Positions 25,451 through 32,664 are shown, numbered from the stretch's first letter. The stretch is 64,000 bases of DNA from Eledone cirrhosa (GCA_964016885.1 OZ024740.1:115320001-115384000), one strand, 5' to 3'. The notes: a model not told the origin generated them from the sequence alone. Program-made: numbers and translations.

Positions 25451-26349
25451 ATTTGCATCCGTTGATGTGTGAAATAGATAAGGAGTATAAGGGGAATAAG
25501 TAATAGGTAACCTGTTATAAATTTCAAGATCTTCATCCTATCTGGCAGGGAATTGATGTAAGATATGTGTGTGTGTGTGTGTGTGTGTGCATGTGTACGA
25601 GTGTGTGTGCGCCCATGTGTGAATGTGTGAGTATGTGTGTGTATGATACAGCAAATTGATAATAGATTATCAGTCTCATAGACGTTATTTATAAGAAATA
25701 TGGACATTGCCATTGAAGTGCAAGCTATGTATAATGTGGAAGGCGTCTAATAACCATTCTTTGTCTATAGATATATGTAAACCTGATTTGGAGTGAGAAA
25801 TAGAGGTCAGGATATATTTTAACCCCTACTATATATAATAGCTTGAAACAAAAAAATAGAGATACTTGTATTTCAGAACTGTTTTTCAAAGATTTTGACA
25901 TGTTTGTAAATGATAGTTACATTAACATGAGAATGAGCATTAAAACACCATTTGTTTGATTAGGGTGGGGTAAGGTGGGGTGATTATGGGAGATGGTACG
26001 GTTATGGAGACGGGGTGATATCGGTTGGAGCATGATCATAAATATGTGGTGAATAAGATTGATGTGGTCAAGACGAGGATTAATAGCTTTAGGAATATAT
26101 CAGCCCCACACTTACACAAACATGTACATATATAAAATAATTGACAGAATGTAATCCGCCTGAGTATCTCTCTCTCTCTCTCTATATATATATATATATA
26201 TATATATATATATATATATATAACGGCGATGAATTATATATACATATGAATTATATATACATATATATATATATATATATATATATATATGTATATATAT
26301 ATATATATATATATATATATATATATATATATATATATATATATATATG

Positions 26350-26726
26350 TAACGGCGATCAATTAGTTTTGCGAGGTTTTTTATATGAAATCGTGTGTCG
26401 AAACAAATAAATAAATATATAAACAGACTAAATAAAGATGGCGTAGAAAATACAATGTAACGGCAGGAAACAATAGCACCACTGACGATGTTGCAGATGT
26501 GCAACGAAAGAACTTTGATAAACTATATATATGTGTTTGTGTTTATATTGTATCTGTATTATATTTGACCATTGTTAGTCAATGGCAACATTGAGGACCG
26601 AATAAATTAGATTACTGATATAAAAGACACAGAAGCGAAAAGCGAAAACCAACCAAACAGTGAGTGTGTTCTGTTATTAATTCTGGCAATATTACACCAA
26701 TTTGACCCTCCCCAAATATAACAATA
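26350..26726. mobile_element. HHR family B element in (TA)n (short antisense tail + sense arm)
   Basis: 26365-26405 matches 31898-31936. The end tgaccctccccaaatataacaat matches 32428-32450. Carries an HHR motif. Confidence 0.75.
26478..26519 (+). ncRNA. Minimal type I hammerhead ribozyme motif (family B)
   Basis: acca CTGACGA t gttgca gatg tgcaac GAAA gaac TT tgat; 6-bp stem II, stem I partly eroded. Confidence 0.7.
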
Positions 26727-26958
26727 TATATATATATATATATATATATATATATATATATGTAGATAAATCTACCAAGAGTTTACGGTAGTGTCCAATC
26801 CGTATGAAGAACTCAATGTAATCCAGATATCATGGAAAGAAGAGATGCATTCAAAAATCACTTTCGGTGAAAGATAAACGGAATACAGAGTCAAGATAAA
26901 ATATAAAAAAAATAATGAATAAAACAATGAAACAGTTCCTTATATTAAACAAAAAAAG

Positions 26959-27121
26959 TTCATTATTTAACGATCGTTTCTAGGACATATATGTGTTAGA
27001 ATTGGCATGCATATTCAACAGATCTATGTACAAAATTATACAAAATTATACAAAATTATACAAACTATCAAATTTAATATACATACTAACACATATATAT
27101 GCCGTCTTCAGAAATAATGAA
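26959..27121 (-). ncRNA. Type I HHR motif with very long stem II (family C, left arm)
   Basis: Reverse complement of 29739-29891 with one extra 10-bp repeat unit. Confidence 0.65.
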
Positions 27122-27459
27122 ATATATTTATTGATAATAACAACAATTCAAAATTACAGGTCTGTTTGGGAACAGAGTTCAAATTGACCAATGAAATACA
27201 CAGAAATATGTCCAGTTAGGTGTGTGTATATATGTAAGTAACTTCGTTCACATATATGCATAAAAATATATGTTCACATACATACGCATGTCGAAAAAAT
27301 GTATGTAAATACAAAAATTCAGGGCTAATGTCTCTGTATGTTTATAATCTACAGATAAAATACATATACGTATATAAACAGGATTGAAGAATATCATGTA
27401 ATCATAAACTGGGAAAAATTTTAAATATATACCTAATTAATATATTCTTTACAATTAAA

Positions 27460-29180
27460 TATATATATATATATATATATATATATATATATATATGTAT
27501 ATGTATATATATATATATATATATATATATATATATATATATATATATATATATATATATATATATATATATATTAATTTTTATTTTTTATTTTTTATTT
27601 TTTATTTTTTATTTTTTATTTTTTATTTTTTATTTTTTATTTTTTATTTTTTATTTTTTATTTTTTATTTTTTATTTTTTATTTTTTGTTAACCTATAAT
27701 CACCTTTTACTATAGATAAAATACAAAATCTGTTTTAATTATTATAAACCTAATTAACATATACTATAGAAATTAATATATAATTTTTAATTTAGTTAAC
27801 CTATAATTTATATTCTACTACCGATGAAATACTTGTTTTGGTTTTTTTCCCTATTACTAAATTCATTTCCTAATATTGATACCATAATGTTAATATTTTT
27901 AATTTAGTTATGCTATAATTAATACTCTACTACTGTTTAACTTCAAAATTCCGCTTCAAAAATTATAAACCTAAGTAGTATACACCTTAGAAATCAATAT
28001 ATTAACTATTTTTAATTTAGTTAACCTATAATTAATAGTCTACTTATATTAAAATGCATAATTTGGCTTTCTTTCTTACATTTCTTAATACTGAAACTAC
28101 TATGTAAACACATATTATGATCTAGATGCAATTTAATATTCTATGTTCCTTGAAACCTATATTTACTATAATCCCCCCCCCCCTATAATTATTTGTATTT
28201 GTAAGCGTGGATGTACGTATGTATATGTAGGTAGGTATGTATGTTTGGGTGCTTGTATGTGAGTATAAAAATACATATGTGCGCATGTAAATAAGGGTGT
28301 ATGATTGTGTGTATATATATATATATATATATATATATATATATATATATATATATATATATATATATATATATATATATATTTGTGTGCATAATTGTCT
28401 GACTGTGTGTATTTATTTATTTATTTATTTATTTATTTATTTTATATATATGTATATGAGTATATGTATATATATATATATATATATATATATATATATA
28501 TATATATATGTATATATATGTGTGTATATATATGTATGTATATGTGTGTGTGTGTGTGTGTGTATATATTTATGTGTGTGTATATATATCTATATATATA
28601 TATATATATATATATGTATATGTGTGTATGTATATCTCTTTATTTATGTATGTCTGAGTTGTGTGAGCGTGTAGTTGTATGTGTATATGCATACATGGAT
28701 GTGTGTGTGTGTGTATATATGCGTATATGTATGTGTATGTGTGTATATGTATGTGTATGTATGTATGTATATGTATATATATATATATATATATATATAT
28801 ATATATATATATGTATATGTGTGTGTCTATATGTGTGTGTGTATGTGTGTGTGTATATATATGTATATATGGGTATGTATGTGTATATGTGTGTGTACAT
28901 GTGTGTGTGTATATATATGTGTATATATATATATATATATATGTGTGTTGTGAATATGTATATATATATATATATGTGTGTGTATGTATATGTGTCTATG
29001 TATTTATATGTGTATATGTATGTGTCTCTATATATATGTGTGTGTATATATATGTATATATATGTGTATATATATATATATATATATATATATATATATG
29101 TGTATGTATATGTGTATGTATATATATGTATATATATCGATGTGTATTTTATATTTTACTTGTTTATATATATATATTTT
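27460..29180. repeat. (TA)n, (TTTTTTA)n, AT-rich degenerate ~110-bp repeat and (TA/TG)n field
   Basis: Heptamer run 27577-27688; ttagttaacctataatta-like motif recurs at ~27688, 27792, 27903 and 28017. Confidence 0.85.
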
Positions 29181-29738
29181 TTTAATATTCTTCTTTTTAT
29201 TTCTAAATTTATAGATACATTTTTAAATAGGCAGTTTGTCTGACACACGTAAATACTGACCCCCCCCCCCCCCCCACCTACTTTCTGTATCTGGACCTAA
29301 ATATATGTGGCAGTGTTTATGTGCGTGCCTTAATGTCCATATGCTTATGATAATAATATATACACATATATGTGTGTGTGTGTGTGTATGTTCGTGGTTA
29401 TGTGTATGTTTATGCGTATATGCGCGTGTGTGTGTGAATGTATGTTTATGTGTGTATATATGAATGTATATATGTTTATATACGTATATGTATTTTATCT
29501 GTAGATTATAAACATAGAGACATTAGCCCTGAATTTTTGTATTTACATACATTTTTTCGACATGCGTATGCATGTGAACATATATTTTTATGTATATATG
29601 TGAACGAAGTTACTTACATATATACACACACCTAACTGTATTTTCTGGACATATTTCTGTGTATTTCATTGGTCAATTTGAACTCTGTTCCCAAACAGAC
29701 CTGTAATTTTGAATTGTTGTTATTATCAATAAATATAT

Positions 29739-29891
29739 TTCATTATTTCTGAAGACGGCATATATATGTGTTGGTATGTATATTAAATTTGATAGTTTGT
29801 ATAATTTTGTATAATTTTGTACATAGATCTGTTGAATATGCATGCCAATTCTAACACATATATGTCCTAGAAACGATCGTTAAATAATGAA
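29739..29891 (+). ncRNA. Type I HHR motif with very long stem II (family C, right arm)
   Basis: ttcattattt CTGAAGA [~114-nt hairpin ggcatatat..gtgtt...aacacatatatgtcc] GAAAC gatc GTT aaataatgaa; perfect 10-bp stem I and palindromic stem III ACGATCGT. Confidence 0.7.
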
Positions 29892-29974
29892 CTTTTTTTG
29901 TTTAATATAAGGAACTGTTTCATTGTTTTATTCATTATTTTTTTAATATTTTATATATATATATATATATTTAT

Positions 29975-31386: not shown

Positions 31387-31480
31387 ACCCCGACAGCTGA
31401 GCTCAAGCTGTTTCGACGGCTAATTCTGGACTAAATGAAAATTTATCCTGGTATTTAAATAGCCGATCTTCTCAAGGGGT
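31387..31480 (-). ncRNA. Type I HHR with U3-A8 variant core (family A), GUC triplet
   Basis: acccc TTGAGAA gatcggcta...tagccgtc GAAA cagc ttgagctca gctg TC ggggt. Confidence 0.8.
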
Positions 31481-31640
31481 AATTCCATATATGGTCAAAC
31501 GCACCAAAGTACTCAATACTTGAGGTAGTAGAGTGGGTAATAGGAACCAGTAAGACCCCGACAGCTGAGCTCAAGCCGTTTCGACGGGCGCACCAAAGTA
31601 CTCAATACTTGAGGTAGTAGAATTGACCATATATGGAATT

Positions 31641-31734
31641 ACCCCTTGAGAAGATCGGCTATTTAAATACCAGGATAAATTTTCATTTAGTCCAGAATTA
31701 GCCGTCGAAACGGCTTGAGCTCAGCTGTTGGGGT
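31641..31734 (+). ncRNA. Type I HHR with U3-A8 variant core (family A, inverted arm), GUU triplet
   Basis: acccc TTGAGAA gatcggcta...tagccgtc GAAA cggc ttgagctca gctg TT ggggt. Confidence 0.78.
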
Positions 31735-32098
31735 CTTACTGGTTCCTATATATATATATATATATATATATATATGTATATATATACATTTATGTGTGTA
31801 TATATATATATATATATGCATATGTGAGTTTGTATGCATATTTATATATATATATATATATATATATATATATATATATATATTTCGTTTCTGAATTTGT
31901 TTAGCAAGATTCTTTATCTGAAATCGTGTGTTGAAACCGATATTGTTATACTTTGGGAGGGTCATGTTGCTAATAAGAAACACACGCACCAGTTGCTTTC
32001 ACTTCAATTTAATTTATTATATATTTATAAATTTACAAATTTATAAATTTCTGGTTGGTTGGTTGGTTCCACAACCAGATAGTTGTTTATATATATAT

Positions 32099-32143
32099 AG
32101 TCATAGTTCTTTCGTCACACACTCTGTGACCTCTTCAGTGACT
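32099..32143 (-). ncRNA. Minimal type I HHR (family B, left arm)
   Basis: Reverse complement of 32265-32309. Confidence 0.8.
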
Positions 32144-32264
32144 GGGGATTTCTTTCTTCGTTTCTGTGCCTTTCCTTTCTTCTATCCTACGCCATTTTGT
32201 TTGTCAAACAAAATGGCGTAGGATAGAAGAAAGGAAAGGCACAGAAACGAAGAAAGAAATCCCC

Positions 32265-32309
32265 AGTCACTGAAGAGGTCACAGAGTGTGTGACGAAAGA
32301 ACTATGACT
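32265..32309 (+). ncRNA. Minimal type I HHR (family B, right arm)
   Basis: agtca CTGAAGA g gtcaca gagtg tgtgac GAAA gaac TA tgact. Confidence 0.82.
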
Positions 32310-32664
32310 ATATATATATAAACAACTATCTGGTTGTGGAACCAACCAACCAACCAGAAATTTATAAATATATAATAAATTAAATTGAAGTGAAAGCAAC
32401 TGGTGCGTGTGTTTCTTATTGGCAACATGACCCTCCCAAAGTATAACAATATATATATATATATATATATATATATATATATATATATATATATATATAT
32501 ATATATCACTTTCCTGTGAATAGATCACTATGCTGTGCTCAGAATCGAATTATCCAAGTGGTATCGGTACCGTTGAGCAATTCTAAAGGAAGTAACATCT
32601 GAAAATTGTTTTGGATTCTGTGCCTCTGGAATTAAATCGATCTTAATTCCCCACTATATATATA

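Follow-up and report, generated by a model that had tools for sequence, protein, structure and literature searches.

Hammerhead-bearing insertions in (TA)n tracts of Eledone cirrhosa: ends of Penelope-like elements and a retrozyme-like unit

The region from 26200 to 32510 of a 64,000-nt stretch of the 3.0-Gb genome of Eledone cirrhosa (GCA_964016885.1 OZ024740.1:115320001-115384000; the whole stretch is hereafter called the window) carries ten hammerhead ribozyme motifs of type I. We consider it about 90% probable that this region is a pile of six separate insertions made in (TA)n tracts by proteins of Penelope-like elements (PLEs), namely five PLE ends, of families A, B, B2, C, and G, and one copy of a further unit, family D. 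The initial annotation of the window had reported ten type I motifs in 6.3 kb and a motif in nearly every unique block between the (TA)n tracts. The ten motifs stand, nine of them being found with a type I descriptor and one being a damaged copy, but self-comparison and mapping to natural reference copies place them in six insertions, not ten elements, with (TA)n tracts lying between the six. The C, D, A, and B insertions each hold the motif twice, as inverted arms, and the unique block at 27690-28300, which is the interior of one family C element, has none. The first and last blocks, both attributed to a single family B, belong to two related families, B2 and B, which are ~85% alike over their last 86 nt.

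Coding capacity, anatomy, and targets of the six families

In longer copies of A, B, B2, C, and G, an open reading frame (ORF) lies upstream of the hammerhead; where copies stand in tandem, the sequence 3' of the hammerhead or tail continues into the next ORF. Among the genome loci examined as longer or additional family copies, which carry L-numbers, the ORF-bearing ones are L079 for A, L032 for B, L120-L122 for B2, L097 and L098 for C, and L127 and L133 for G. A single ORF encodes a reverse transcriptase (RT) together with a GIY-YIG domain at its C terminus, seen as whole frames in A, B, and C and as 3' parts in B2 and G. The frame measures 786 amino acids (aa) in A (L079, tandem period of 3,118 bp), 1,329 aa in B (L032, tandem period of 4,423 bp), and 830 aa in C (L098, tandem periods of 6,599 and 7,081 bp), and B2, of which the 3' part of the RT/GIY-YIG ORF was seen, has a tandem period of ~4,147 bp. 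These copies show that A, B, B2, C, and G are the truncated 3' ends, or pseudo-long terminal repeats (pLTRs), of autonomous PLEs, with the hammerhead inside the pLTR, and they bear out the lead to Penelope-like pLTRs given by the initial annotation. The B frame at L032:2543-6529 is already open upstream of the tail, and a long low-complexity insert rich in Asn, His, and Thr precedes its RT. The units of A and C are 3.1 kb and 6.6-7.1 kb long, respectively, the latter because of the C 3' untranslated region (UTR); Hydra-clade elements are described as generally short, under 3 kb, which is stated as a tendency (PMC8557442).

The motifs that define the Hydra, Neptune, and Nematis clades were taken from PMC8557442. 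The full Hydra set is present in A and C, with RWR (RWK-like), DKT, a CxCx5C linker, CxxC plus CxH beside E and N, and no CX2-5CxxC linker; G has the Hydra C-terminal motifs and YRDD. B and B2 have a CX4CxxC linker and CCHH cysteines in the endonuclease, and C465, C470, C473, C481, and C492 are invariant in 58 homologues. By motif content, A, C, and G would be Hydra-type PLEs and B and B2 would be Neptune/Nematis-type PLEs. In the 58-member alignment of B, GIY-YIG is matched by 10/58 sequences and RVT_1 by 7/58; both alignment profiles match solved RTs weakly (E 3e-5 and E 0.02), and a phmmer search of solved structures with the C ORF returned nothing meaningful. The Atlas look-alikes of the A protein include GIY-YIG and RVT_1 clusters, and the nearest named protein homologues are an RT-domain protein of Octopus vulgaris at 68% and an Argonauta protein at 42%. 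The families had been called unrelated, which holds for their RNA, but comparing the protein profile of the Hydra-type group with that of the Neptune-type group gives a 97.7% probability of homology over 569 columns.

All five families are abundant. Exact pattern matches across the genome, which count arms, not insertions, and miss diverged copies, number 10,794 for A, 5,067 for B (8,195 for its tail), 8,708 for B2 (with a 29-mer), 7,398 for C (4,769 for its tail), and 3,662 for G (15,194 for its tail), and the reversed-pattern controls gave 0 throughout.

Every family shows a pair of sharply defined 3' ends at fixed positions, separated by 60-137 nt, both of which pass into (TA)n. Counted from the ribozyme cut, these ends lie at +20/+103 in A, +164/+224 in B, +64/+201 in C, +28/+115 in G, and +200/+292 in D. 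Tail-selected ends are followed by (TA)4 in 28/30 copies of C (the other 2 continue into the element), 29/30 of B, and 22/30 of G, in agreement with the claim that ribozyme-bearing retroelements end here in (TA)n. For all ends found by BLAST, the figures are 68/76 for A, 59/71 for B, 26/36 for B2 (those for B and B2 including cross-matches between the two families), 46/48 for C, 20/27 for G, and 47/60 for D, against a background of 12% of random positions in the examined loci. In the PLE families, an inverted 5'-truncated arm is present and the tail stands on one end only; an inverted short-end arm lies within 1.5 kb of the tail in 14/30 tail-selected copies of C, 16/30 of B, and 15/30 of G. 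The same combination of inverted arm and tail is described for PLEs in the preprint of PMC8557442, which quotes tails of 30-40 bp, shorter than the 60-137 nt seen here.

The two-end anatomy fits two internal RT start sites and nicking of both strands, as reported in vitro for a PLE of the anole (PMC11167929). By analogy, we propose that the GIY-YIG domain would nick both strands of a TA tract and that each nick would prime reverse transcription at one of two internal RNA sites; because the elements end at TA or ATA, the nicked target could pair with the RNA there. Head-to-head joining of the two 5'-truncated cDNAs would then produce palindromes in which one arm bears a tail. The 5' ends seldom lie within 5 nt of the cut (2/43 incidental arms in A, 1/30 in B, 0/30 in C, and, by eye, 0/30 in G), and since arms rarely begin there, the RNA template would be mostly uncut by the ribozyme; PMC11167929 likewise reports that ribozyme cleavage was not needed in vitro. 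Each insertion would leave TA on both sides and, together with arrays carried in the UTR of family C, would multiply the targets locally and generate hotspots.

The 3' UTR of family C is 3.7-4.1 kb long, consists of dinucleotide runs (TA/TG) for 48-51% of its length, and holds 9-15 tracts of (TA)8 or longer, in 4/4 copies measured. The TA/TG tracts at 27459-29137 of the window are the inside of one such element. Family C may spread its own (TA)n targets and points to a possible feedback loop that links a retrotransposon with the microsatellites it targets. Our literature search, with most subscription papers and Repbase beyond its reach, found no paper on a PLE UTR that carries microsatellites.

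That the elements pile up, as the initial annotation had stated, was confirmed in the first 42.5 Mb of contig C1, with 288 listed sites and with same-family pairs and tandems collapsed by hand. Within 5 kb, 33 cross-family pairs were observed, against 7.6 for uniform placement, 11.7 with a 250-kb jitter, and 16.7 with a 60-kb jitter (p 0.002); within 1 kb, the cross-family excess over the 60-kb jitter was not significant in this set. The families do cluster, about 4-fold relative to uniform placement, but the effect is of moderate size, and the presence of six of them in 6.3 kb stands out as extreme. The examined loci, which overlap, also hold ~25 further hammerhead motif groups, of which singletons may be chance.

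Family D is a noncoding unit with one type I hammerhead and a longest frame of 76 aa. It forms head-to-tail dimers of 547 and 544 nt (L159/L173 and L171/L175), 23/29 loci hold the part that links its 3' end to the next hammerhead, and no PLE ORF was attached to it in 30 loci. The 31-mer count, with 7 exact matches, undercounts D, which is a more diverged family: a DNA search gave 1,322 first-look candidates, 40 of which were scored. D has the same insertion anatomy as the PLE families, with two 3' ends and inverted arms, and most likely represents a retrozyme-like passenger of one of the PLE proteins. Because its unit of 544-547 nt exceeds the range of 150-450 bp given for retrozymes, we call it retrozyme-like and do not file it as a member of that group. 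It provides sequence-level support for PLE-driven spread of retrozyme-like RNAs.

Ribozyme structure, alternative origins, and 5' ends

The type I core (CUGANGA...GAAA...UH, with three stems) is present in A (as the U3-A8 form), B, C, and D. G departs from it by an A at position 4 in its commonest variants, and core position 4 matters for hammerhead activity; B2 has a stem I of 2 bp in 25/25 loci (by eye), so that two of the motifs are atypical in almost all copies. Stem III has 5-6 bp in A, D, and G, is minimal in B, and is palindromic in C, and the minimal and palindromic forms suggest that B and C may act as dimers, as in the dimer model of minimal hammerheads (PMC4209133). Between B and B2, 2/6 pairs of stem II are changed on both sides, hence compensatory, with one event each. 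In C, 6/37 predicted pairs may covary, in a fold unlike the hammerhead fold near the core. The lowest-energy folds have a hammerhead shape for A and B only, and not for C, D, G, and B2. Folding z-scores are unremarkable for five of the six folded motifs (-1.3 to +0.45); the monomer of D, with a z-score of -3.8, places the core and stem II in another hairpin.

These folds and scores, in a region rich in palindromes and TA tracts, are what one could cite for chance matches in AT-rich palindromic DNA or for assembly artefacts around microsatellites, an account to which we give almost no credence. The descriptor found 9 motifs in the region when stem I was set to at least 2 bp and 8 when it was set to at least 4 bp, whereas 300 dinucleotide shuffles of the 4,343 nonmicrosatellite bases gave a mean of 0.09 (maximum 2) and 0.007 (maximum 1), respectively. 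This is the shuffled-control check named by the initial annotation, and the motifs came through it, with a contrast that is flattered by a descriptor tuned on these very motifs. The thousands of exact copies with empty reversed-pattern controls, the compensatory changes in stem II, and the presence of the same families in an independent public sample all argue against chance, and this account is refuted as regards the presence of the motifs, a conclusion that is silent on whether each of them cleaves. In the public sample (two runs), contigs cover all bins; the depth rises or falls ~tenfold in one step at the start of the C hammerhead, which we did not use as evidence, depth not being copy number and subfamily divergence being a possible cause of the step. 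A scan of the window with Rfam returned no hammerhead family among the matches listed (best 150 of 225, E<=1), and those listed are microRNA-type matches to palindromes.

It could also be held that all six families are nonautonomous retrozymes, spreading through self-cleaved circular RNAs. Most copies are indeed short and noncoding, and D would fit well, with its dimers, its lack of any frame over 76 aa, and stems I and III whose length would suffice for a ribozyme acting as a monomer. However, the longer copies of A, B, B2, C, and G run on into RT/GIY-YIG ORFs, which refutes this account for five families, and the repeat units of the ORF-bearing families measure 3.1-7.1 kb, so that we regard it as very unlikely for the set as a whole. 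The reading of the region as six insertions by PLE proteins has its own difficulties. A direct Pfam scan of six ORFs was blank, the ORF of G was seen only in parts (the 3' part in L127 and L133), and the clade labels come from motifs, not from an RT tree with named PLEs. A second measure of clustering was weak: in 144 loci, exact matches to other families numbered 10, where 6.3 would be expected. For D, homology pointed to no partner PLE, the other loci offering nothing beyond one 26-nt match, and the presence of TA on both flanks makes any target-site duplication unreadable. For G, no tandem copy was seen among the loci examined.

The 5' ends of the arms pile up at particular places in three families. 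In A, 54/71 arms stop in stem II, in the interval from -45 to -23 and most often at -40/-41, at an edge that we take to be initiator-like (TTAGTC) with a TATA-like box 29-30 nt upstream, likewise in stem II. In C, 10/30 tail-selected arms end between -142 and -138, in the 5' strand of stem I (three of them placed by eye from palindrome centres), at TCATTA, presumably also initiator-like. In B, 5/30 arms (5/16 of the truncated ones) end between -109 and -95, just 5' of what we assume to be a YY1-like motif, with presumed NRF1-like and ETS-like motifs upstream. For G, a pile-up near -46 was predicted before the search, and the prediction failed, with 1/30 arms there; by eye, 16 of the 30 end 3' of the cut, 10 run past the 230 nt shown, and 3 end elsewhere. 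In these G tail arms (L239-L268), many of the 16/30 that stop 3' of the cut do so close to the short 3' end, which looks as though one run of RT halted where the other starts (by eye).

A retrovirus-like refinement would account for such edges. The RNA would start at a promoter in the pLTR, and RT would begin in the tail, near the RNA 5' end, and run off at the start to give a 'strong-stop' cDNA, two of which would form the abundant mini-palindromes. The hammerhead of the 3' pLTR would cut the RNA's 3' end, the overlap from start to cut would serve as a terminal repeat, and a template jump through this repeat would produce long and partial-tandem copies. We offer this refinement tentatively, at well below even odds. 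In its favor, the 5' ends of A, B, and C pile up at promoter-like sites and not at the ribozyme cut, and Drosophila Penelope is reported to have an internal promoter in the pLTR and no obvious mechanism for pLTR regeneration (PMC2377424). Against it, the pattern was found after the fact, the one prediction made beforehand failed in G, B2 spreads with a 2-bp stem I, and the A edge falls within an AU-rich hairpin as well, where RT might stall, which makes stalling a live rival for that edge. A splice acceptor at the A edge was considered and dropped, as the junctions show no common upstream exon or leader.

A wider joint reading, which we hold to be somewhat less probable still, is that the genome records the rebuilding of pLTRs in tens of thousands of copies, that C carries its own (TA)n landing sites and feeds the microsatellite load, and that D represents a retrozyme-like RNA bearing the insertion signature of PLEs. 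For the rebuilding, RT would run off at a start at or inside the hammerhead and jump to the ribozyme-cut 3' end, so that the hammerhead would define the repeat. What the hammerhead does in PLEs and how the pLTR arises are described as open questions in print (preprint of PMC8557442, PMC11167929, and PMC2377424), and our search, with the reach stated above, found no paper on 5'-end pile-ups at a hammerhead or on a strand-transfer model for PLEs.

Layout of the pile and its surroundings

The six insertions follow each other from left to right in the order B2, C, G, D, A, and B. The B2 insertion, probably a Neptune/Nematis-type PLE end, occupies 26350-26727 on the plus strand, with an inverted tail arm at 26350-26409 and a sense pLTR arm at 26401-26727 that runs into (TA)n; its hammerhead-like motif (26474-26523, plus strand, core at 26482) has a stem II of 6 bp and a stem I of only 2 bp. 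A lone 15-nt piece of the B2 tail end lies at 26222-26236, in the TA tract to the left. The C insertion (26759-29954, plus strand), of probable Hydra type, comprises an inverted tail-bearing arm at 26759-27359 and a sense arm at 27356-29954 with 3' UTR and pLTR. Its first hammerhead (26961-27119, minus strand, core at 27111) has a stem II region of 124 nt and a palindromic stem III, and its second (29741-29889, plus strand, core at 29749) has a stem I of 10 bp and a stem II region of 114 nt; between them, the TA/TG microsatellite arrays and spacer of the 3' UTR (27459-29137, plus strand) align to the 3' UTR of L091, L092, L094, L097, and L098.

The G insertion, a probable Hydra-type PLE end, lies on the minus strand from 29976 to ~30420, with a sense arm at 29976-30251 and a 5' part that is rearranged and inverted. 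Its hammerhead (29996-30052, minus strand, core at 30044, A at position 4) has a stem II of 3 bp and a stem III of 5 bp; a candidate G motif on the plus strand near 30110 was rejected, the motif being located on the minus strand with its core at 30044. In L133 and other G loci, the 3' UTR contains an internal tandem duplication of ~125 nt (~150-330 nt upstream of the hammerhead). Still further upstream comes a hairpin that follows half a hammerhead core, the second conserved box being absent from this half core. The D insertion (30426-31144, plus strand) is a palindrome of the ORF-less ~545-nt unit, with a short arm at 30426-30730 and a long arm at 30728-31144. The hammerhead of the short arm (30615-30689, minus strand, core at 30681) is the damaged tenth motif, with C3 changed to A, which came from a looser scan; that of the long arm (30790-30864, plus strand, core at 30798) has a stem I of 8 bp and a stem III of 5 bp.

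The A insertion (31289-31749, plus strand), also a probable Hydra-type PLE end, consists of a tail arm at 31289-31499 and a partial repeat at 31498-31587, both on the minus strand, and a short arm at 31623-31749 on the plus strand. Its hammerheads lie at 31384-31483 (minus strand, U3-A8 core at 31475, 54-nt stem II region, GUC triplet) and at 31638-31737 (plus strand, U3-A8 core at 31646). Family A has further mini-palindromes at 407-599, 39672-39846, and 61201-61632 of the window; their identity to the reference copy is 80-91%, and truncation in stem II has cost them the first half of the core. A (TA)27 tract at 61402-61455 has two family A insertions facing each other across it. The B insertion (31880-32452, plus strand), a probable Neptune/Nematis-type PLE end, is a palindrome centred at 32204 with a tail on its left arm only, and its hammerheads are located at 32096-32146 (minus strand, core at 32138, minimal 2-bp stem III) and at 32262-32312 (plus strand, core at 32270).

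Outside the pile, 42400-42446 (minus strand, core at 42438) carries a seventh hammerhead family, whose stem III is minimal and palindromic; the examined loci hold 19 of its motifs in 10 variants, and the changes in stem I preserve pairing. The minus strand carries several broken copies of a non-LTR (long terminal repeat) retrotransposon at 8900-22700, with endonuclease and RT frames that appear Tx1/L1-like by eye, and the remains of a DNA-transposase-like ORF in two frames at 34841-36910. A dispersed repeat family resembling short interspersed nuclear elements is found at 32658-33284 and in at least 8 other places of the window, and the same family is inserted in the G 3' UTR of L124, L134, and L147.

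Comparison with known systems

The initial annotation spoke of a probably unannotated system, which overstated the case, for the system is not undescribed: of the six families, five represent ends of ordinary autonomous PLEs, and the supplement of PMC8557442 (Craig et al. 2021) includes Hydra-1_Obim of Octopus bimaculoides, a Hydra-clade element with a hammerhead and a preference for (TA)n. As far as that source describes them, Hydra-clade PLEs resemble A, C, and G in the C-terminal GIY-YIG, the type I hammerhead near the 3' end, and the (TA)n target, and also, within this group of three, in the RW-basic, DKT, and YRDD motifs, the CxCx5C linker, and CxxC plus CxH around E and N. The hammerhead sequence of Hydra-1_Obim differs from those of A, C, and G (by eye). 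The Hydra PLEs listed there have loops II of 3-10 nt, whereas the stem II regions reach 54 nt in A and 114-124 nt in C; G differs from them by the A at core position 4, and C, at 6.6-7.1 kb with a microsatellite UTR, by exceeding their ~3 kb or less. Neptune and Nematis PLEs have in common with B and B2 the CX4CxxC linker, a pair of cysteines ahead of YIG, YVDD, a stem III that is minimal and palindromic, and the targeting of microsatellites, whereas B has a long Asn/His-rich N-terminal insert.

The minimal hammerheads of PLEs described by Cervera and de la Pena (2014, PMC4209133) are similar in occurring as many families per genome and in showing the U3-A8 variant of the core, one additional base 5' of stem II, and opposite-strand motif pairs 100-700 bp apart; the same paper reports a 2-bp stem I, as in B2, for Penelope of D. 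virilis. Unlike these minimal forms, A, D, and G have full stems III of 5-6 bp, and C has a very long stem II. Poseidon PAc of Anolis carolinensis (Frangieh et al. 2024, PMC11167929) is alike in its two RT start sites that define the tail, its AT-rich target, and its use of uncut RNA as template; the families here belong to other clades and have tails of 60-137 nt and a strict (TA)n target. Family D is comparable to the metazoan non-LTR retrozymes (Cervera and de la Pena 2020, PMC7229834), which are noncoding, have one type I hammerhead per unit, and form head-to-tail dimers, and for which PLEs have been proposed as mobilisers (PMC7229834; bioRxiv 10.64898/2026.07.22.740005). The retrozyme units quoted are of 150-450 bp, against 544-547 nt in D, which is mostly a dispersed truncated monomer and in which the PLE signature of two ends and inverted arms is directly visible. 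A 2026 annotation of Octopus vulgaris (PMC13282606) lists 31 recently active Penelope-like families, and the word 'ribozyme' is absent from its main text.

Published work already covers hammerheads in the pLTRs of PLEs, genomes that each hold many families, cores of the U3-A8 form, motif pairs on opposite strands, the targeting of (TA)n, and a hammerhead-bearing Hydra element from an octopus, and our finding consists mainly of new families of a known kind of element. Less ordinary are the D unit, the microsatellite cargo of C, and the pile-ups of 5' ends in A, B, and C. With young, high-copy families of two clades and intact-looking ORFs, the role of the hammerhead and the origin of the pLTR become testable, and a single genome offers natural ribozyme variants that range from full to minimal and include the U3-A8 core, the change at position 4, a 2-bp stem I, and a stem II of more than 110 nt.

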